From Formosa sp. Hel1_33_131 (lineage in GTDB: Bacteria; Bacteroidota; Bacteroidia; Flavobacteriales; Flavobacteriaceae), in contig NZ_CP017260.1 of assembly GCF_001735745.1 (NCBI RefSeq), positions 2,703,159-2,735,158 on the forward strand: a DNA stretch of 32,000 nucleotides. The letters are read 5' to 3'. Shown piece by piece: positions 3,302-12,866 of this stretch. How positions within the stretch are numbered: position 1 is the stretch's first letter; every line of letters starts with the position of its first letter. The notes under the pieces are model-generated. The model was not told the origin of the DNA. It searched no databases and saw only the letters and a program-made list of their open reading frames with translations. Made by a program: the position numbers and the translations under genes.

Positions 3302-3913
3302 ATGCCTTTTAAAAAATTACATTCTGATATTCGAGAGAAATTAGAATCTCTAAACATACAAACGCCAACGCCATTTCAGAGCAGCAGCATTCCCATTATT
3401 AAAAGTGGTGTGAATGTATATTGCACCGCTCCTAAAGACAGTGGTAAAACAACCACCCTTGTATTGACTACCTTACAAAAGTTAAAATGTGAGGCTGACG
3501 GAAATGCGCCTAGAGCCGTTGTTCTTGTAGAAAACAAGGAACGGGCGATGGAATTATACGAAACGTTTTTAGCCTATACAAAATACAATTCTTTACGCGT
3601 TTATGTAGGGCATGAACAGCTGCATATAGACATTCAGAAATCGGAAATATTTGAGGGTACAGACATTCTTATTTCTACTCCCAAAACAATGAATAAGTTG
3701 TTCTTATTAAATGGTGTCAGCACTGCACAATTAAAAATAATCAGTATTGATGATGCGGAATTTCTTTCGCAACACTCCTCCTATTCGGCGATTATGTCGA
3801 TTTCTCAGAGTATCCAAAAATGTCAATATGTCATTTACTCAGAAAAAATGACTAAAATGCTTGAGCGTTTTGAATCTTATTTTATGGAACGTTCAAAAAT
3901 CGTTTCTTTTTAG
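3302..3913 (+). CDS. DEAD-box-helicase-like protein with a RecA1 domain only and degenerate motifs
   Basis: 203 aa. Q-motif-like TPFQSSSIP; motif I APKDSGKTT; motif Ia region VVLVENKERAMEL (canonical PTRELA); STPKT in place of TPGR; DDAE in place of DEAD. There is no helicase C-terminal (RecA2) domain, because the next gene starts 30 nt later. Confidence 0.6.
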   Translation: MPFKKLHSDIREKLESLNIQTPTPFQSSSIPIIKSGVNVYCTAPKDSGKTTTLVLTTLQKLKCEADGNAPRAVVLVENKERAMELYETFLAYTKYNSLRVYVGHEQLHIDIQKSEIFEGTDILISTPKTMNKLFLLNGVSTAQLKIISIDDAEFLSQHSSYSAIMSISQSIQKCQYVIYSEKMTKMLERFESYFMERSKIVSF

Positions 3914-3943: not shown

Positions 3944-4579
3944 ATGATACCTAAATTACATTATATTTCACAGGGGAATTCGCCCAAAGCACATCTGGAT
4001 CACATTCAAAATGCCTGTGCAGCAGGTGCGGAATTAGTCGTGTTAAACCTTCAAAACAGTTCTGAAAAGAAGTATTTAAAAATAGTGAAACAGGCAAGAG
4101 AGATCACGTCTCATTTTCAAACACGTTTAATTATTAGCGCACATTATAAAATAGCTAAAGAACTAAAAGTAGATGGCATCCATTTAGATTTTACATCGCC
4201 CTGCCCTACTATTATTCGAAAAGAGTTACTCCCTTGGCAACTGATTGGAGCGACCGCAAACAACTTGCAAGATTGTGAGACTTACATCGAAAAGGAAGTC
4301 GATTATATATACTTAGCACCATTTAGAGCAAAGGAAGACATTCAAGGAACTCCATTAGGCTTGAACGGTTTTACCGCAATTACAGAAGCCTTAAAAACCG
4401 AAACGCCTATTATTGGCGTTGGAGGGATCACTACAACTGATGTTACAGCCATCTTAGAAACCGGAATTTCTGGAGTTGGGGTTTCTGATGAAATCACACA
4501 AGATTTTAATACCATAAAAACATTTAACCAACTATTGACGGCTTCTTCAACAGAAGAACAACGCCATTCGTTTCAATAA
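3944..4579 (+). CDS. Thiamine-phosphate synthase family protein (ThiE/TenI-like TIM barrel)
   Basis: 211 aa. It has a typical family layout, ending with PIIGVGGITTTDVTAILETGISGVGVSDEI (phosphate-binding loop region) and an earlier VDGIHL segment. Confidence 0.7.
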   Translation: MIPKLHYISQGNSPKAHLDHIQNACAAGAELVVLNLQNSSEKKYLKIVKQAREITSHFQTRLIISAHYKIAKELKVDGIHLDFTSPCPTIIRKELLPWQLIGATANNLQDCETYIEKEVDYIYLAPFRAKEDIQGTPLGLNGFTAITEALKTETPIIGVGGITTTDVTAILETGISGVGVSDEITQDFNTIKTFNQLLTASSTEEQRHSFQ

Positions 4580-4613
4580 ATGACTGTAGGAGTTGTTAGG
4601 TTAAATTAAGTTA

Positions 4614-5795
4614 TTACGCTAACAAATCATATTTGTTACTTGGAGGAAATAATAAATTTAAACTATTGTCTTTTAATTTAAATAAAGGTCCTTTTTCTGC
4701 GCCTCCACCAGTTGGAGTTCTTTTGATTAAATGATCTACTGTAATTATTCCTTGTTCTAAAAGTAAATCAAATTGTGAGATAATTGGTTTTCTTGTGTGT
4801 TCAACTAGTTTATATTGAAAATGTTCTTTGCCTCTTATTTTAATACTATCAGCAGCGATCCAAAATGTTTCTTTATGTTTCTCTAATAGTCGTTGATGTA
4901 ATTTTTCCAGAGTCCATACAACAAAATCACCAACTTCTTTTTTGTCCGAAGTTTCTATTAAATGGTTTATATCTGAATTAATTTTTAATGAGAGACCTTG
5001 TGAGTTGACTACAATAGTAGATAAAGTACAATACAATTTAAAAGCACTTCCTCTGCTATAACCGAACTCATTTAATATCTCTGTTGAATTTTTAAATTTG
5101 CTTAATGTCCAATCTGGTACTTGAGCAAATAAATTCTTCCGATTCCCTTTTGAAGATCGATAAGATTTCAGTTCAATTCCTTTGTAATCTGGTAATTTAG
5201 AAGAATTAATATCTATTCCCAAGGCTGTTTCTAAAGTACGTCCAACAGATGTATCAGCATTAACCATTGAAGGAATTGGACCTTTCTTAGCAATTGTTGT
5301 TAATAAGCCTAGTAATTCATTCGCAATTACATTTTCATTATAATTAATTTCTTGTACTAATTCTTTTAAGGGGTTAGAATTAACACCATTTATTAATTGG
5401 CTAACTGGCAGTTGAGTTACATTGATAATGTGAATTACACCATCAAAACAAATTAATCCTAGAACATCATTTGGTTGTGTGTGTTTAGATATTTCTGAAA
5501 ACCATATTCTTGGATCTCCTGTTTTTGTCTTAGGCCTGTATAACGAAGTTTTGGATTTTAAAACAGAATTTACATCATAAATTAAAGCATCAATAATTAT
5601 TTTATGATCAGGACCTTGAAGTTGTAAGCTATAATCGTGAAAGTTATTAGTTCTTAAATAATTCCTTACAGTTCCGGTTGCATCCATTATAGACTTCTTA
5701 AGTCCATTTTCAGTAGGTTCAATTAAAGTTAAGGAGATTGAGTTTTTAGTTAAAACCTTAAGCTTATCTTCTTCTTGGGGAGTTAATAATCTCAT
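4614..5795 (-). CDS. Type II restriction endonuclease: C-terminal MvaI/BcnI/MutH-like PD-(D/E)xK nuclease domain plus an extra ~165-aa N-terminal domain
   Basis: 393 aa. The catalytic-type motif is LPDYKGIELKSYR (D203, E208, K210). The C-terminal GGGAEKGPLFKLKDNSLNLLF resembles the C-terminal region of BcnI/MvaI as I recall it. The start overlaps the methyltransferase stop in ATGA (5792-5795). The island is low in GC. Confidence 0.7.
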   Translation of the reverse strand: MRLLTPQEEDKLKVLTKNSISLTLIEPTENGLKKSIMDATGTVRNYLRTNNFHDYSLQLQGPDHKIIIDALIYDVNSVLKSKTSLYRPKTKTGDPRIWFSEISKHTQPNDVLGLICFDGVIHIINVTQLPVSQLINGVNSNPLKELVQEINYNENVIANELLGLLTTIAKKGPIPSMVNADTSVGRTLETALGIDINSSKLPDYKGIELKSYRSSKGNRKNLFAQVPDWTLSKFKNSTEILNEFGYSRGSAFKLYCTLSTIVVNSQGLSLKINSDINHLIETSDKKEVGDFVVWTLEKLHQRLLEKHKETFWIAADSIKIRGKEHFQYKLVEHTRKPIISQFDLLLEQGIITVDHLIKRTPTGGGAEKGPLFKLKDNSLNLLFPPSNKYDLLA

Positions 5796-8005
5796 TTAAT
5801 GTGTTTCAAAATTTCAATTGCAACTGCTCTAGCCATTAATGGAGGCACTGCGTTTCCGACTAATGTATATTGGGGCAGTTCGGTTTTTCTATTATTTCCG
5901 CCCGTTGAACGTTTTCCTTGAAAAACGAATGAATCATCAAATGATTGTAACCTTGCCATTTCCCTAACAGTTAATGCTCTTGGTGAGTTATAGTGAATGT
6001 AATCATCTGGAATAGTCATAACCGTAGGACTTTGATTCTCTGGTTTTAATACATTGTAATTTCTTTTATTAGACGATAAACCACATTCATTTAATTTATT
6101 TTGTGCTTTTTTATAATTTCCTTCTTTTAAAATTATATCAAGTCGTTTAATTACATCCTCTCCTTGGTTACTTGTTTTATGATTATGAAGTAGGTCATAA
6201 ACTTTTTCTCCATTATTAAGAGCTAATTCACTTTTTACATAAAAAGGTTTGGTTGCTTTTTCAAATCGACCGTTTAGCCGACCTCTCTTACTCCATTCTG
6301 CAAAAGTTTTCCCTTTAGTTTTTATGAGTTTACCATCAATTGAACGAGCCTTAATTAGACCTTTCATTTTTTTAGCAGTTACATTATACTGTTTAGAAAT
6401 ATCTACTGACTGATATTGGTGAGCTTCTTGATTATTGCCAATAAAATCTAAATCATAAAGCGCTTCGAAAACAGAAACCTTCTCTTCTTCCTTAACAGTA
6501 GCAGGAATCTCAGATATGAATTTTTGATCTTTTCTACACCCTATAAATAAAACACGCTCTCTATTTTGTGGTACTCCATAATTTGATGAATTTGCTACAA
6601 ATGGCGCTTCTATTTTATAAAGTCTTATATCACTGATAATTGTATCTAATTCATTGCTTTGTTCTTTGTCACAATAGGCACGAATCATTGTGAGACAATC
6701 ATCAATATTTAGGACATATATTTTCAATGCTTGTATTATATCGTCACAAGATTTCTTAAAGTCTTTTACTACATTTAATCCATCAAATGCTTCTTCGACT
6801 TTATTGATTATTTCATTTGAATCAATATCCGTGAGGAATTGAGTGAAAGAATCTACAAAGAAATCGTTATCAATATTACAAAAATCCTTTTCACGAATAA
6901 TATCTCGTTTAAGTTTTTCCCATTCTTTACTTCTAGCTAAAATATTAAAACCGTGTCTGATCGTGCTAATTCTTTCATCCGTTTTACTCGTTTTGTAGTC
7001 AACAATATCTGGAGTTAACTTTCTGAACTTAGCATCAATTGTTCGTATATAAACTTCTTTCACTTCTTCAATTTTAGAATCCGTAAACTGTTCAATTTCA
7101 ATTCTTTTAATCAAACAATCTAACAAGAAACCGTTATCTGTATTAGTCGTTTTTAAAGATTTAATAAAAGAGGCTAAACGAGGGATTTCTTTAATATCAA
7201 CAATGGAATTAATTTCTTTTAGAATTAGTTCTTTTATTTTCCCTTTTTCCTTTGTTAAAATTCCTTTTACATTCTCCATAATAAAGTACTTGGGCTGAAG
7301 TACTTTGATTACTCCCAAATAATGAGCAAATAAATCATCCTTTTTATCAAACTTCTTTCTTTTGCCTGCTAAACTAAAACTCTGACAAGGAGGGCCTCCA
7401 CAAACTACGTCAACTTTTTTGCCTTTGGTTTTCGAAATTAAATTATCCAAAAAATCAGGTTCTGTAATATCTTGACATAAAAAATCCGCATCCAATCCTA
7501 ATTGATGATTGTATCTTACTATATGAGTTAATTCAGAGTTATCATTTATATCATTTGCTACAAGAAAATCAAAGAATTTATTGTTATGCTCTGCTTGTAA
7601 AAAACCTTCACTAAAACCGCCCGCACCTGCAAATAAATCAACAAACGTAAACGGTTTACCGTATAGAGGGATTTGTTCCCTTACAATGTTAACATTGTGA
7701 TTCTCTTTGTAAGCTTTTACAAAACCATGTAACTTTGTTTTGATTTCATTATTAGTATAACTTTTTTTATAGGAATTGTTTAGTAGTTCATCTGCCCTCT
7801 CCTTTAAATAATTCAAATAATGGTTAATTTCAGTAGATCTTTCTGAGTTTTGTTTTACAGTTTGAGTTTCCTTATCAAAATCTTGCCGTTTTATTTTTTC
7901 TCCAGTTGATAATTTAATTTGTTCAGAATTACAATTAATCCTTAAGTGAATTGGAGAGAATCCTTTTTTATTTGATTTATCGAGATAGAAGTTTATTGTA
8001 GCCAT
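5792..8005 (-). CDS. DNA (cytosine-5)-methyltransferase with an N-terminal integrase-arm-like DNA-binding domain and a large motif VI-VIII insertion
   Basis: 737 aa. Motif I FVDLFAGAGGFSEGF (121-135); IV GGPPCQSFS (203-211, Cys207); VI FIMENVKGIL (241-250); VIII QNRERVLFIG (480-489); IX TVREMARLQSFDDSFVF (679-695); X GNAVPPLMARAV (717-728). The N-terminus MATINFYLDKSNKKGFSPIHLRINCNSEQIKLSTGEKI... is arm-domain-like. Confidence 0.95.
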   Translation of the reverse strand: MATINFYLDKSNKKGFSPIHLRINCNSEQIKLSTGEKIKRQDFDKETQTVKQNSERSTEINHYLNYLKERADELLNNSYKKSYTNNEIKTKLHGFVKAYKENHNVNIVREQIPLYGKPFTFVDLFAGAGGFSEGFLQAEHNNKFFDFLVANDINDNSELTHIVRYNHQLGLDADFLCQDITEPDFLDNLISKTKGKKVDVVCGGPPCQSFSLAGKRKKFDKKDDLFAHYLGVIKVLQPKYFIMENVKGILTKEKGKIKELILKEINSIVDIKEIPRLASFIKSLKTTNTDNGFLLDCLIKRIEIEQFTDSKIEEVKEVYIRTIDAKFRKLTPDIVDYKTSKTDERISTIRHGFNILARSKEWEKLKRDIIREKDFCNIDNDFFVDSFTQFLTDIDSNEIINKVEEAFDGLNVVKDFKKSCDDIIQALKIYVLNIDDCLTMIRAYCDKEQSNELDTIISDIRLYKIEAPFVANSSNYGVPQNRERVLFIGCRKDQKFISEIPATVKEEEKVSVFEALYDLDFIGNNQEAHQYQSVDISKQYNVTAKKMKGLIKARSIDGKLIKTKGKTFAEWSKRGRLNGRFEKATKPFYVKSELALNNGEKVYDLLHNHKTSNQGEDVIKRLDIILKEGNYKKAQNKLNECGLSSNKRNYNVLKPENQSPTVMTIPDDYIHYNSPRALTVREMARLQSFDDSFVFQGKRSTGGNNRKTELPQYTLVGNAVPPLMARAVAIEILKHIK

Positions 8006-8016
8006 ACTTTATATTG

Positions 8017-8052
8017 CGGACGTTTTTACGGACACGGACAAATTTACGGACA
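8017..8052. repeat. Four CGGAC(A) direct repeats, including two copies of the 10-mer TTTACGGACA, in the methyltransferase promoter/leader
   Basis: CGGAC occurs at 8017-8021, 8029-8033, 8035-8039 and 8047-8051, a start spacing of 12/6/12 bp. TTTACGGACA occurs at 8025-8034 and 8043-8052. On the gene strand this reads GTCCGTAAATTTGTCCGTGTCCGTAAAAACGTCCG, ending 11 nt before the ATG. Confidence 0.8.
8039..8046 (-). promoter_or_regulatory. Candidate -7 promoter box TAAATTTG for the methyltransferase/endonuclease operon
   Basis: Exact TAnnTTTG match on the minus strand, 33 nt upstream of the ATG at 8005, lying between CGGAC repeats 3 and 4 and overlapping repeat 3 by one base. Confidence 0.45.
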
Positions 8053-8175
8053 GCAAGTAATATAACCTACTAAAATTTATAATATTTCCATTTACCCTGT
8101 TCAATTCACATCATCACTTTTGCTCAACATCCATAATAAAAATTCAAAAAACTCCAAGTTAGAACAGAAATCGTT

Positions 8176-8183
8176 TATCTTTG
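8176..8183 (+). promoter_or_regulatory. Candidate -7 promoter box TATCTTTG
   Basis: Exact TAnnTTTG match, 115 nt upstream of the ATG at 8299. This would give an unusually long leader, so the call is less certain. Confidence 0.3.
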
Positions 8184-8298
8184 TGAGGATACCTGCAAAA
8201 AAACTTTCTGGAAAAAAGATCATTAATTTAGTAATTCCTCTGTGATTTACGAATTAAGCTATGCTTTTGGACAATTATAAAATTAAAAACGAGGAACT

Positions 8299-9243
8299 AT
8301 GAAGAAGGACAGAAGACAATTTTTAAAAAACACCACACTTGCGGTTATCGCGATGGGTGCATCTCCCTTACTAACAAAGGCTGATACTGGTAAATCTAGG
8401 GATCTATCAAATGTAAAACCACAAGAAGCCTGCAACCCGTTAACACAAGATTACTATGGTACGGGGCCATTTTATACACCCAATGCGCCGATTAGCTCTG
8501 ATGGTGTGATGATGCCAAGTGATGAAGTGGGAGTCCGTTTAAAATTATCGGGAATTATTAAAAATTTAGACTGCACAGAAGTCATTCCTGATACCGTATT
8601 GGACTTATGGCATGCCAACGACGCCGGTGCTTATGACAATACAGGTTTCAGCTTGAGACGAAAAATCATATCTAACAGTGCGGGTTTTTATAATTTAGAA
8701 ACTATTTTACCTGGAAAATACTTGAACGGCAGTAGCTACAGACCCAGTCATATTCATGTGAAGGTGACCACTCCTGGGTTTTCAACTTTTACAACTCAAC
8801 TGTATTTTGAAGGCGATACGAGTATTGCTGGAGACGCCGCTGCGTCCATTACTTCTGGTACTTTTGATGCCACAGATCGTATTATTCCTCTTGTGGATAA
8901 TGCGGGTGTTTTAGAAGGCACATGGGATGTTATTGTCGATGGAGATGGCATTCTTTCTGCAGATGATTTACACCTCACAAATGGGATGATTTACAACGTG
9001 AGCCCCAATCCATTTACAGATCAAGTGACTATTAATTATGGTGTTTTCAAGTCCTCAAAAGCACGTATAGAAATTTATAATTTGCAAGGGCAACTCGTCG
9101 CCAATGTAGAAAATAAACAACTGAATGCAAATAAATATTCAGCCGTTTGGAGACCAGAACCGTTTATGGCTTCTGGACTTTATTTTTGTGTGTTAAAAAT
9201 TAATGACCTTCAAGTACACTACTTGAAAATTTTGAAGAAATAA
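8299..9243 (+). CDS. Secreted intradiol-dioxygenase-like protein with a twin-arginine signal and a T9SS C-terminal sorting domain
   Basis: 314 aa. N-terminus MKKDRRQFLKNTTLAVIAMGASPLLTKA (Tat consensus RRxFLK). Core LDLWHANDAGAYDN...PGKY...YRPSHIHVKV...TQLYFEGD (intradiol dioxygenase signature region). C-terminus NVSPNPFTDQVTINY...IEIYNLQGQLV...SGLYFCVLKINDLQVHYLKILKK (Por/T9SS sorting-domain pattern). Confidence 0.75.
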   Translation: MKKDRRQFLKNTTLAVIAMGASPLLTKADTGKSRDLSNVKPQEACNPLTQDYYGTGPFYTPNAPISSDGVMMPSDEVGVRLKLSGIIKNLDCTEVIPDTVLDLWHANDAGAYDNTGFSLRRKIISNSAGFYNLETILPGKYLNGSSYRPSHIHVKVTTPGFSTFTTQLYFEGDTSIAGDAAASITSGTFDATDRIIPLVDNAGVLEGTWDVIVDGDGILSADDLHLTNGMIYNVSPNPFTDQVTINYGVFKSSKARIEIYNLQGQLVANVENKQLNANKYSAVWRPEPFMASGLYFCVLKINDLQVHYLKILKK

Positions 9244-9337: not shown

Positions 9338-10213
9338 ATGCATTTAGAAAACCCTTACAGCGATCGTTATGATCTGAAACGATTGGCAATTCACCATCCA
9401 CAGTTACAAGAACACATTGTTTTAAACCCCTCAGGCGAAGAAACGATTGACTTTAGTAATTCAGCCGCGGTCTATGAATTGAATAAAGCCATGCTTTTGG
9501 CCGACTTTAAAGTTGAGAAATATGAATTGCCAATGGGCTATCTCATTCCTCCTGTCCCAGGACGTTTAGAATATTTATTACATATACGTGAGTTTCTTTC
9601 AGAACAATTTAATATCGATAAAAACACCAAACTACGAGGGTTAGACATCGGATCTGGTGCGAATGGCATCTATTGTATTTTGGGATTACAACATTTTAAT
9701 TGGACCATGGTAGGTGCTGAATGTGATGCCAATTCTGTAGAAATTGCAAAGGCTAACATGCAACATACAAAGTCATTAAAAAATAAGATTGAAATTCGAC
9801 ATCAAGAAAATAAAAGTTTCCTTTTTAAGAATATAATTAAAACGGATGAGCAATTTGATTTCACCGTTTGCAATCCCCCATTTCACACCTCTAAAGAAGA
9901 GGCGTTTAGAGGGTCTCAGAGAAAAATTAACAATTTAGGTCGTGAATTTGATAAAAAAGAAGTCGCTCTTAATTTTGAAGGTCAAGCCAACGAACTTTGG
10001 TGCAATGGTGGCGAAGCCCTTTTTATCAAACGATTGATAAAAGAAAGTACCGCGTTTAAAAATCAAGTGAAAGTCTTTTCTACACTGGTTTCAAAAACAG
10101 ATAGCCTCTCTAGTATTGATAAACAGCTTAAAAAAGCTAAAGCGAATTCTTATGTGTTGCCAATGGATTTGGGCAATAAGAAAAGTCGTATTGTTCTCTG
10201 GTGGTTTGATTAG
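9338..10213 (+). CDS. rlmF: 23S rRNA (adenine1618-N6)-methyltransferase
   Basis: 291 aa, colinear with E. coli RlmF as I recall it: YDLKRL, PPVPGRLEYLLHI, LDIGSGANGIY, FDFTVCNPPFH, ALNFEGQANELWCNGGEALFIKRLIKES, FSTLVSK. Confidence 0.85.
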   Translation: MHLENPYSDRYDLKRLAIHHPQLQEHIVLNPSGEETIDFSNSAAVYELNKAMLLADFKVEKYELPMGYLIPPVPGRLEYLLHIREFLSEQFNIDKNTKLRGLDIGSGANGIYCILGLQHFNWTMVGAECDANSVEIAKANMQHTKSLKNKIEIRHQENKSFLFKNIIKTDEQFDFTVCNPPFHTSKEEAFRGSQRKINNLGREFDKKEVALNFEGQANELWCNGGEALFIKRLIKESTAFKNQVKVFSTLVSKTDSLSSIDKQLKKAKANSYVLPMDLGNKKSRIVLWWFD

Positions 10214-11529
10214 GTTTCTAAGACCGTTACCCGTACTTTTTTCTTTTTGAGGCGTGTATTATTTAATTTCTCTACCAAGTCCTCTGCGATCGACTTAGGC
10301 ACTGCCACAAACGCACAATCTTGTTTTAACTCAATATTTCCGAGTTGATCCTTTGTAATATTCCCTTGTTTAAAAAAGAGTCCTGCAATATCCCCTTTTG
10401 AAATTTTGTCTTTTCGACCTCCAGAAATAAACAAAGTTTCCCAAAACTGTGGTTTACGAACCGACTGTTTAGAGATGTTAACGACTTTAGAATTATGAAT
10501 GTACGCTGGTAAATCTTCAGAGTCTCCTTTCATTATATAAGCCGTTCCTTTAGAATCGACTCTAGCAGCACGCCCATTTCTGTGAATAAATTCTTCTTTG
10601 GCGCGAGGTACTTCGTAATGGATAATAAATTTCAACTCAGGAATATCAATACCTCGAGAGGCTAGATCTGTCGCAATGAGAATCTGATTGGTGCCATTTC
10701 TAAACTTTATCAAAGAACGTTCTCTTTCTTTTTGTTCCATACCTCCTACAAAACAACTGTGGTTGATCTTATTTTTATCTAAAAAACGACTCACGGAATC
10801 AACACTGTCTCTTAAATTACAGAATACAATCCCTGTTTGGTTGCCAAGGTGTCCTACTAAATCCAAAAGCGTTTGAGGTTTATTTTTAGACGGATAGACT
10901 ACGGTTTTAATCTCCAGTTTAGAAACTACTTTTTCTTTCAAATAATTGACAGTGGTGGGTTGATCCAAACGTACAAACCCAGGGATGTTGATACTTTGAG
11001 TGGCAGAGGTTAAAATCCGTTTGTTGATATGTGGCAACTGATGGATAATTTCTTTCATTTCAGCTTCAAACCCATCTTCAAGCGACTTGTCAAACTCATC
11101 TAATATGAGCGTTTTTATGCTCGTTTTAGAAAAACGGTCGTTGCTAAAATGATCTGCAATTCTACCGGGCGTACCTATTAAAATAGCGGGTACGTGTTTG
11201 ATTTCAATTTTATCTTTAGACATTGGACGTCCGCCATACACAGCATTCACTTTAAATCCAGAACCCATACTGCGGACTACTTGTTCAATCTGTATGGCCA
11301 GTTCTCTTGAAGGCACAATAATCAAGGCTTGCACCTCTTTACTTTCGGGATCAAGTAATTTGATAAGTGGCAATAAAAAAGCCAATGTTTTACCTGTTCC
11401 TGTAGGTGATAATAAGATGGTATTGGTTGTTCTATCAATCACCGAAATCGCTTCCTCTTGCATTGGATTCAATACATGAATATTTAATTTCGTTAAAATA
11501 TCTTGTTGTTCTTTAATTGTATTTGCCAT
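10210..11529 (-). CDS. dbpA: DEAD-box ATP-dependent RNA helicase with a DbpA-type C-terminal RNA-binding domain
   Basis: 439 aa. Q motif NPMQEEAI; motif I SPTGTGKT; PSRELA; TPGR; motif II is DEFD, not DEAD; SAT; HRNGRAAR. The C-terminus GGRKDKISKGDIAGLFFKQGNITKDQLGNIELKQDCAFVAVPKSIAEDLVEKLNNTRLKKKKVRV aligns with the DbpA RNA-binding domain pattern. Confidence 0.8.
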   Translation of the reverse strand: MANTIKEQQDILTKLNIHVLNPMQEEAISVIDRTTNTILLSPTGTGKTLAFLLPLIKLLDPESKEVQALIIVPSRELAIQIEQVVRSMGSGFKVNAVYGGRPMSKDKIEIKHVPAILIGTPGRIADHFSNDRFSKTSIKTLILDEFDKSLEDGFEAEMKEIIHQLPHINKRILTSATQSINIPGFVRLDQPTTVNYLKEKVVSKLEIKTVVYPSKNKPQTLLDLVGHLGNQTGIVFCNLRDSVDSVSRFLDKNKINHSCFVGGMEQKERERSLIKFRNGTNQILIATDLASRGIDIPELKFIIHYEVPRAKEEFIHRNGRAARVDSKGTAYIMKGDSEDLPAYIHNSKVVNISKQSVRKPQFWETLFISGGRKDKISKGDIAGLFFKQGNITKDQLGNIELKQDCAFVAVPKSIAEDLVEKLNNTRLKKKKVRVTVLET

Positions 11530-11534
11530 AATAA

Positions 11535-12866
11535 TTACTTCTTTTTTGAAACCTCAATTTTTGATTGCGCTGTACTTGTTTGCGCCAGATAATTTGCCAA
11601 TACTTTTTCGATCAATTCCTCTTTGGTCAAATGGTGAAAAATGGTACTTATATCTGCTCTGAATGTATCTGAAATCGTACGATTGGGTTTGGTCTTAAAT
11701 ATTTTTTTAGCCCACAACAATCCGTTGTTTTCTTCGATACTTTGGGCGTCTGCTTTTTTGAATTCATTAAATTTAATTCCCAATTCTTTTTCAAATTCAG
11801 GAAGGTCTTGAACTTCTTCTGCTTGTAATATGGTTAAGGACAATCCCTTTGCGCCTGCTCTCGCTGTACGTCCACTTCTGTGTACATAGGCTTCAAAGGT
11901 GTCTGGCAAATGATAATTGACAACATAGGCGATTTCTTTCACATCAATACCACGAGCAGCTAAATCCGTTGCCACCAAAATATCAATAAAGCCTTCTCTA
12001 AATTGTCCCATGATCCGATCGCGAATGCCTTGAGACAAACTCCCATGAAGCGCACCAGATGAGAATTTATTAATGGCTAAATTTTTAGCTAATTTATTAA
12101 CCGCTGCTTTTGTTTTACAAAATATAATGCTACGTTGTCCTTCTTTGCTACTTAAAAAATGCATCAAAACATTCAGTTTTTCAATAGGTTCCACCACCAC
12201 ATATTGATGATCGATGCCTTGATGACCAACCGTTTTCATGTCGGCTTCTATTTGCATCACATGTTTCGACATGTAATTTTGAACCAATTGTTTAATCGCA
12301 CCTGAAAGTGTAGCGGTAAACAACAGCGTTCTGCGTGTTTTTGGAATTTCTTTAATAATAAGATCCAAATCTTGTTTTAAAGCACTCACCATTTCATCGG
12401 CTTCGTCCAATACTAAATACGATAACTGTTTAAGATTAATCGCGCCACGCTTCACTAAATCCACCAAACGTCCTGGGGTTGCCACCACAATATGGGTTGG
12501 CGATTTTAAACGTTCTATTTGAGGTCTTATAGGAATTCCACCACAGACAGCTGCCACAGATATTTCTGGACTATGCACCGCATACGCAGTTAAGTTCGTA
12601 TGAATTTGTTGTCCTAACTCACGGGTGGGTGCTAATATGACCACTTGTACATGAGCGTTTTCTAGGTTGATTAACTGCAACAAAGGAATTCCAAAGGCCG
12701 CAGTTTTTCCTGTACCCGTTTTGGCAACAGCGACGATGTCTTCCGTTTGATTTAGAACCACCGGAATGGTTTTTACTTGAATGTCTGTAGGAACAGAAAT
12801 TTGTAAATCGGCTAAGCCTTGTTGCAAGAGTATATTAATTCCTAAATCAGAAAACGGTTTTGACAT
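11535..12866 (-). CDS. DEAD-box ATP-dependent RNA helicase
   Basis: 443 aa. AKTGTGKTAAF, PTRELGQQ, TPGR, VLDEADEM, TAT, HRSGRTARAG, plus a ~70-aa C-terminal extension. Its stop lies 5 nt upstream of the dbpA-like start, so the two are probably co-transcribed. Confidence 0.9.
   Translation of the reverse strand: MSKPFSDLGINILLQQGLADLQISVPTDIQVKTIPVVLNQTEDIVAVAKTGTGKTAAFGIPLLQLINLENAHVQVVILAPTRELGQQIHTNLTAYAVHSPEISVAAVCGGIPIRPQIERLKSPTHIVVATPGRLVDLVKRGAINLKQLSYLVLDEADEMVSALKQDLDLIIKEIPKTRRTLLFTATLSGAIKQLVQNYMSKHVMQIEADMKTVGHQGIDHQYVVVEPIEKLNVLMHFLSSKEGQRSIIFCKTKAAVNKLAKNLAINKFSSGALHGSLSQGIRDRIMGQFREGFIDILVATDLAARGIDVKEIAYVVNYHLPDTFEAYVHRSGRTARAGAKGLSLTILQAEEVQDLPEFEKELGIKFNEFKKADAQSIEENNGLLWAKKIFKTKPNRTISDTFRADISTIFHHLTKEELIEKVLANYLAQTSTAQSKIEVSKKK

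Follow-up and report, generated by a model that had tools for sequence, protein, structure and literature searches.

A candidate operator of direct repeats beside the gene for a C5 cytosine methyltransferase with an integrase-type arm domain in Bacteroidota

What use could a DNA methyltransferase make of a domain known from site-specific recombinases? The question is raised by a restriction-modification (R-M) locus of Formosa sp. Hel1_33_131 (Bacteroidota, Flavobacteriaceae), which lies in a stretch of 32,000 nucleotides (nt) from contig NZ_CP017260.1 (positions 2,703,159 to 2,735,158, forward strand), hereafter the window, to which all coordinates refer. The locus holds a gene, M, for a C5 cytosine methyltransferase (MTase), whose first 75 codons (7781-8005) were read in the initial annotation as an integrase arm-type DNA-binding domain, and a downstream restriction endonuclease gene, R. 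A 35-bp block of GTCCG direct repeats, placed just before the ATG of M, is conserved throughout the family, and repeats of the same spacing precede integrase genes with related arm domains. We consider it probable that the M-R operon is under autorepression by M, whose arm domain would bind these repeats, although physical binding, the position of the promoter and the sign of the regulation are each inferred. The features on which the argument turns are listed here with the support for each.

8017-8051, minus strand: candidate operator GTCCGTAAATTTGTCCGTGTCCGTAAAAACGTCCG, 35 bp, 11 nt before the ATG of M (repeat search, conservation)
8039-8046, minus strand: TAAATTTG, resembling a -7 box (TAnnTTTG), between repeats 1 and 2 (consensus match)
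5792-8005, minus strand: M gene, encoding an arm-domain/C5 cytosine methyltransferase fusion of 737 amino acids (aa) (open reading frame (ORF) list, PF00145, PF17293, TIGR00675, motif order)
7697-8005, minus strand: arm-type DNA-binding domain, aa 1-103 (Pfam match at aa 9-84, AlphaFold2 (AF2) model, structural matches in BFVD, alignment with integrase N-termini)
7661-7696, minus strand: aa 104-115, a linker predicted to be flexible that joins the arm domain to MTase motif I (low predicted local distance difference test score, pLDDT)
5795-7660, minus strand: C5-MTase catalytic part, aa 116-737 (profiles and motifs I-X)

The arm domain and the repeat element

Profile searches and the predicted fold identify the N-terminus of M as a homologue of the arm-binding domain found in tyrosine integrases of Bacteroidota (IntCTnDOT type). 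The Pfam family Arm-DNA-bind_5 (PF17293), which the initial annotation had expected to find here, matches aa 9-84 with 26.4 bits in the whole protein, above its gathering score of 22.6, and scores 29.1 bits (E 1.4e-6) against aa 1-115 alone. In integrases of the IntCTnDOT type, this family forms the arm-binding domain, an identification backed by biochemistry for IntDOT (PMC8138268, PMC2817482). In a phmmer search of 1.84 billion cluster representatives, aa 1-115 had 90 matches, and integrases were matched in turn: among the 91 aligned sequences (matches plus query), Arm-DNA-bind_5 is found in 85, an integrase SAM-like core-binding domain in 20, a tyrosine-recombinase catalytic domain in 15 and an MTase domain in 5. 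The matched integrases are proteins of ~400 aa with Phage_int_SAM_5 and Phage_integrase domains (E down to 9e-6), and their N-termini align with that of M from aa 1 to ~100. Searches of Pfam and NCBIfam gave no helix-turn-helix (HTH) family match at the M N-terminus, a predicted beta-sheet-core arm domain, and a hidden Markov model search of PDB sequences with the arm alignment found nothing related.

An AF2 model of the arm domain, built from the phmmer alignment, has a pLDDT of 82 and predicts beta strands at residues 3-8, 16-25 and 28-39, helices at 57-79 and 85-103, and then disorder at 105-114; the linker falls below a pLDDT of 50 at residues 105-114 and 103-115 in two independent models. 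The structural comparison with Foldseek, proposed along with the domain assignment, supports it among predicted structures. Phage integrases are the four best neighbours among the predicted viral structures of BFVD (E 7e-7 to 7e-3, TM scores 0.60-0.72, identity 13-19%), while solved structures gave no significant match, a result weighed below.

Identity across 78 related loci is 77, 86 and 54% at the first, second and third codon positions of aa 1-75, and from this pattern we conclude that the arm domain is translated and under purifying selection. The expectation that it forms part of the mature enzyme, drawn from the lack of a methionine between M1 and M243, thus holds; codons 2 to 130 contain a single possible alternative start, a TTG at the conserved Leu64. 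What follows the domain is, as had been described, a complete C5-MTase catalytic part. PF00145 (DNA_methylase) matches with E 6e-52 (177 bits against a cut-off of 22) and the NCBIfam model TIGR00675 (dcm) with E 3e-45 (155 bits against 100.65), and the motifs stand in canonical order: I (FAGAGG, 125), IV (PCQ, 206), VI (ENV, 244), VIII (QNRER, 480), IX (681) and X (GNAV, 717). Solved relatives of this part include M.HaeIII, M.HhaI and DNMT1. Pfam finds no tyrosine-recombinase domain (PF13102, PF00589 or related) in the 737-aa protein, and the M protein is not an integrase.

The 35-bp element occurs once in the window, against a chance expectation of 0. It is composed of two tandem 18-nt units that give four GTCCG direct repeats, starting at 8051, 8039, 8033 and 8021 on the minus strand with a spacing of 12/6/12 nt, and it holds three of the four GTCCGT hexamers of the 32-kb window. 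We retrieved 80 related genome loci, and counts for the element refer to 81 genome loci. In 78 of these it is present at a fixed length without indels, with a mean pairwise identity of 93% over many genera, compared with 49% for the 35 nt upstream, 54% for third codon positions and 86% for second positions. The GTCCG cores are nearly invariant (76-78 of 78 loci), except for the middle base of the third core, which is C or A; variation falls mostly at positions 8, 9, 21 (third core GTCCG or GTACG), 24, 29 and 30. DNA similarity to most of the more distant loci begins exactly at 8052, at the first repeat, and in closer relatives it reaches 35-67 nt further upstream, to 8087-8119.

The same arrangement recurs in metagenomic data. 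Sixty-six independent arm-MTase genes all have at least two repeats 12 nt apart and no more than 45 nt from the ATG, in 58 cases as the full 12/6/12 array, in six as two cores 12 nt apart and in two as three cores. A divergent clade, with arm domains 31-36% identical, also keeps GTCCGT repeats 12 nt apart, either as GTCCGTAAATTCGTCCGT or in a three-core variant. Over ~145 related loci, the element is far better conserved than its surroundings. Its repeats are direct, with no ACGGAC on the same strand, and it contains no CCWGG or CCSGG site. A role in RNA structure was considered and set aside (fold z = -1.05, not significant), and Rfam gave no match in the window or in 10 loci. The repeat pattern has 8 chance matches in 2.9 M viral contigs, all inside unrelated coding DNA and none adjoining an MTase.

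The -7 promoter consensus of Bacteroidetes is TAnnTTTG. The match listed above occupies positions 6-13 of the element and is the sole one on the minus strand of the 293-bp intergenic region (8006-8298). Among the loci, the box takes forms such as TAAATTTG, TAATTTTG and TAGATTTG, in which the 'nn' varies and TA and TTTG are fixed in 75-78 of 78 cases. A sigma-70 promoter scan was dropped as uninformative for a Bacteroidota genome.

Repeats at integrase genes and the case for autorepression

The nearest relatives of the arm domain outside the MTases offered a comparison. DNA was retrieved for ten tyrosine integrases of this kind, and each of these genes is preceded, at 28-76 nt from its ATG, by a pair of direct repeats with a spacing of exactly 12 nt and the cores TGTCCG, TGACCG, TGACAG and TGTACG. 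Examples of such pairs are GTCCGTAAAATA/GACCGTAAAATT, TGACCGTAATAA/TGACCGTAAAAA, TGTACGCAATAG/TGTCCGTAAAAA, TGACAGTAATAT/TGACAGTAAATA and CTGTCCCCTGTA/CTGTCCCCTACT, and the integrase P0174 has its own upstream repeats, GTCCGTAAAATAGACCGTAAAAT. The repeats agree at 7-9 of 9 positions, compared with mostly 4-6 of 9 in 80 control windows within the same genes, and shuffled sequences reach the observed score in 0-3% of trials (P <= 0.03, for a spacing picked after inspection of the data). A metagenome profile search with an alignment of five integrase arm sequences recovered mostly MTases, together with six new integrases. Since ten integrases carry such repeats, the arm-domain family is tied to sites spaced 12 nt apart independently of the MTases. 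This points to the transfer of the 5′ end of an int gene and its neighbouring sites to the MTase family, followed by a duplication that turned two sites into four. Some integrase genes have other tandem repeats upstream, namely AAAACGAT in three or four copies (L092:1-82) and CTGACACC(GAAT) in four (L094:60-110), which are possibly additional arm-type sites or sites for accessory proteins.

In the mechanism that we favour, the arm domain, held on its flexible linker, would recognise the GTCCG(T) direct repeats at 8017-8051, which would lie on either side of the -7 box and of the likely start of M-R transcription. With rising amounts of MTase, up to four molecules could occupy the promoter and exclude RNA polymerase. 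Transcription of M and of the translationally coupled R would then be shut off, giving a homeostatic autorepression with a set level of both proteins. A regulatory reading by analogy with M.SsoII has strong, if indirect, support because the repeats adjoin the ATG, are extremely conserved, co-occur universally with the domain and have counterparts at integrase genes. Domain and sites would probably have come as a single module, taken over from the 5′ end of an integrase gene. The fuller version of this history remains tentative; in it, a single recombination event would have joined the integrase 5′ end with its upstream arm sites to form a self-contained autorepressor module, whose two sites were later duplicated to four and whose regulated promoter moves between genera, including as integron-type cassettes.

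Three other explanations were weighed, each of which accounts for less of the evidence than autorepression. The element could be the cassette's own promoter or 5′ leader, serving host RNA polymerase or a host factor, with an arm domain that is structural or vestigial. A horizontally spreading family needs a portable promoter, its relatives include integron-type cassettes, and the TAnnTTTG inside the element varies at 'nn' as promoters would. Such a role does not explain, however, why there should be four precisely spaced and near-invariant GTCCG cores, two of them downstream of the -7 box, or why similar repeats 12 nt apart stand at integrase genes with a related domain. Nor does it sit well with the purifying selection on the arm domain, which is kept in every full-length family member seen among database matches and metagenomic copies, and we regard it as unlikely.

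Alternatively, domain and repeats might serve mobility, the repeats being arm-type accessory sites at the edge of the R-M cassette at which a recombinase supplied in trans captures or excises it. Arm domains normally act in intasome assembly (PMC8138268, PMC2817482), the relatives are mobile cassettes and the repeats stand where similarity to distant relatives begins. In closer relatives, though, similarity extends 35-67 nt beyond the repeats, and in cassette copies the boundary that resembles a recombination site lies ~190 nt upstream of them, which makes the repeats internal and places them next to the ATG. Integron-type cassettes need no arm sites, and no integrase adjoins the M-R pair in the window or, with the exception of one integrase fragment, in the 80 loci. 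We hold this explanation to be very improbable. Least probable of the three is an arm domain that acts as an auxiliary DNA clamp for general affinity, processivity or modulation of catalysis, with no specific operator: many large MTases have accessory DNA-binding domains and the methylation activity of M.SsoII is affected by DNA carrying its regulatory site (PMC6100179), but a clamp leaves unexplained a conserved repeat block restricted to the gene's own promoter, with GTCCGT just once elsewhere in 32 kb.

Several observations nevertheless weigh against autorepression. No -33 element is evident near the candidate -7 box, and with 52 occurrences in the window where 46 are expected, TAnnTTTG shows no enrichment; the promoter placement is therefore weak on its own. 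The Foldseek search of solved structures gave the arm model no significant match and so does not confirm a similarity to the lambda or Tn916 Int arm folds. There is no protein-DNA covariation, the repeat core being constant while the domain diverges, and the loci are related by descent, so that the conservation counts are not independent events. The statistics of the integrase repeats are somewhat weakened by the choice of the 12-nt spacing after the data had been inspected, although the effect is large. Because M and R share an operon, their repression by M would bring no obvious delay of R during establishment, in contrast to SsoII or C-protein circuits.

Related regulators, the protein family and its cassettes

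C5 MTases with an N-terminal regulatory DNA-binding region include M.EcoRII, M.MspI and M.ScrFIA as well as M.SsoII and M.Ecl18kI. In the last two, which provide the precedent for autoregulation, the N-terminal region occludes the enzyme's own promoter (PMC2760811); it contains an HTH and its operator is a 15-bp palindrome (PMC2760811, PMC3978073), and in M.SsoII the module is joined via a flexible linker (PMC3978073). The enzyme studied here resembles them as a C5 MTase with an extra N-terminal module on a flexible linker, which in our case is predicted, and in having, directly upstream of M, a candidate site separate from the methylation site that overlaps putative promoter elements; autorepression through steric exclusion of RNA polymerase would likewise be expected. 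The differences are equally clear. The N-terminal regions share no sequence homology, M having a beta-sheet/helix arm domain (PF17293) rather than an HTH, and its sites are two or four direct repeats with a 12/6/12-nt spacing rather than a 15-bp inverted repeat. The M and R genes overlap and run in one direction, whereas the SsoII genes are divergent or facing, and the partner is an endonuclease of MvaI/BcnI type in a Bacteroidota host range. We looked for three hallmarks of the M.SsoII type, namely an HTH, an inverted-repeat operator and divergent genes, and found none of them. By analogy, the best-supported reading is that the M protein works like an M.SsoII-type enzyme without being one. 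The 9-mer AATTTGTCC is common to the element (at 8039-8047, minus strand; TAAATTTGTCCG) and to the SsoII/Ecl18kI operator as published, AGGACAATTTGTCCT (PMC2760811); the binding domains are unrelated and the match is probably a coincidence.

Integrases of the IntCTnDOT subgroup are the second point of reference. Their arm domains (IntDOT, NBU1 IntN1) are reported to recognise short arm-type sites close to where recombination takes place (PMC8138268, PMC2817482). The arm domain of M is homologous, and related int genes have direct repeats 12 nt apart by their start codons. In M, however, a complete MTase takes the place of the core-binding (SAM-like) and catalytic recombinase domains, and the sites stand only at its own promoter, with neither an att core nor a partner arm. 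Type II R-M systems with C proteins similarly combine a dedicated DNA-binding module with an operator, here a candidate, at the R-M promoter for feedback control, but their binder is a separate small HTH protein and not a part of the MTase. No conserved small ORF accompanies the present cassette, given that similarity to relatives ends at 8052-8119. A chimera of the lambda-Int arm domain and Cre (Warren et al. 2008, as cited in PMC2817482) indicates that an arm domain is portable and can give new site-dependent behaviour to another DNA enzyme. That construct is artificial and still a recombinase, whereas the fusion described here is natural, widespread and joined to a methyltransferase.

The fusion is not an isolated case. 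The full-length M protein has more than 6000 database matches, and the best 120 of them are 73-96% identical, almost all 737 aa long and publicly annotated with precomputed PF00145 and PF17293 domains. Hosts of the best matches are Flavobacteriaceae, Marivirga, Chitinophagales, Saprospiraceae and Bacteroidales. The fusion thus defines a large, horizontally spread Bacteroidota family. It is also old, because divergent members with arm domains 31-39% identical likewise continue into MTase motif I. Literature searches found no publication on it; self-regulating methyltransferases are known as a kind, and the arm-domain version is unreported and abundant. Two further features of the locus are the following.

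6626-7240, minus strand: all-helical insertion of ~200 aa (aa 256-460 of M) between motifs VI and VIII (split Pfam MTase match, full-length AF2 model)
4614-5795, minus strand: R gene, encoding a 393-aa restriction endonuclease of the MvaI/BcnI family (PF15515, E 6e-70 over aa 165-383)

The insertion has no Pfam match and a pLDDT of 80-92, and its placement is unusual among bacterial C5 MTases. The full-length AF2 model, which rests on a shallow multiple sequence alignment and has a pLDDT of 60 in the catalytic core, was used solely for the arm domain, the linker and this insert. The start of R overlaps the stop of M (ATGA) and the two genes are co-directional; the R protein gives a distant match to R.MvaI (2oa9). 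Its N-terminal ~160 aa (aa 1-164; window 5304-5795, minus strand) have no family match; they may be a further domain of effector or DNA-binding type, on the model of the two-domain relative UbaLAI (PMC5766183). The target of the system was also sought through palindrome avoidance. In 528 kb of host flanks, CCWGG has an observed/expected ratio of 0.67, a value that is not diagnostic of specificity as CCGG, GGCC and GATC are equally low, and the approach was abandoned, several unrelated palindromes being as depleted as CCWGG.

In most of the 80 loci, M is immediately followed by an MvaI/BcnI-family gene. No R gene is recognisable in twelve (L001, L003, L008, L010, L011, L012, L017, L019, L021, L023, L025 and L053), and these still carry the arm-MTase and the candidate operator, L017 in the two-repeat form; they may be orphan MTases or have a different partner. 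Two more (L026, L058) give only a weak, partial MvaI/BcnI match. Extra DNA separates M and R in six loci, ~2.2 kb in L006, L014, L020, L049 and L066 and ~0.5 kb in L033. In the divergent clade, M is repeatedly split (L081 at 4001-8588, L082, L083): L081 has a 195-aa arm ORF and a 496-aa MTase ORF, and the gene of L083 is fragmented. Either the genes are decaying as pseudogenes, or indel errors of long-read sequencing have broken the frame. L081 also differs in layout: it has two genes of unknown kind, of 385 and 353 aa, and an MvaI/BcnI gene in convergent orientation.

The R-M cassette of the window (4400-8200) has ~30% GC, compared with 36-42% in the flanking genes, which is consistent with recent horizontal acquisition, and it lies between a thiamine-phosphate synthase gene and a dioxygenase gene. 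In a clade ~70% identical to the window protein, the M-R pair forms an integron-type gene cassette (L062 at 130-1005 and 4680-4875, L031, L034, L037, L038, L044, L045, L055, L064, L070, L074, L076 and L078). The cassette of L062 starts with TTACCTG after the G|TT of an attC-like imperfect palindrome and ends with an attC-like site of its own, in which CAGGTAAC pairs with the first bases; the neighbouring cassette shows TTGGC...GCCAAC. In L034 the cassette ends form a covarying pair, TTACCGCC/GGCGGTAA. Such pairing of cassette ends is seen in 13 of 16 loci, and several loci have arrays of these sites. Their cassette nature is a probable reason for the presence of the system on contigs of 3.4-5.6 kb in many isolate assemblies. 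This assignment applies to the relatives. The window copy showed none of the conserved blocks that flank the cassette copies, although no dedicated attC search was made, and similarity ends at 8052-8119 and ~4620. About 700 bp from the window cassette, a 203-aa ORF (3302-3913, plus strand) has a DEAD domain without Helicase_C and looks truncated; two intact DEAD-box helicase genes lie at 10210-12866.

Meaning for restriction-modification control in Bacteroidota

Known modes of R-M control are C proteins, HTH extensions of methyltransferases, promoter methylation and antisense RNA. To these, the present locus may add a domain thought specific to site-specific recombinases, which appears to have been co-opted as an R-M regulator, and it offers a natural example of the arm-domain portability that had previously been only engineered. 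The candidate operator is sharply defined and only 35 bp long, which makes the idea directly testable. For a large and uncharacterised group of Bacteroidota integrase arms, the repeats also provide a probable recognition motif, TG(T/A)C(C/A)G repeated 12 nt apart.

If the arm domain acts as we propose, a regulated R-M operon circulates widely in marine Bacteroidota, partly as integron-type cassettes. Should capture in one event prove true, R-M control of the MTase or C-protein type would gain a third structural class, and the promoter-proximal arm sites of the parent integrases would double as operators for the autoregulation of int.

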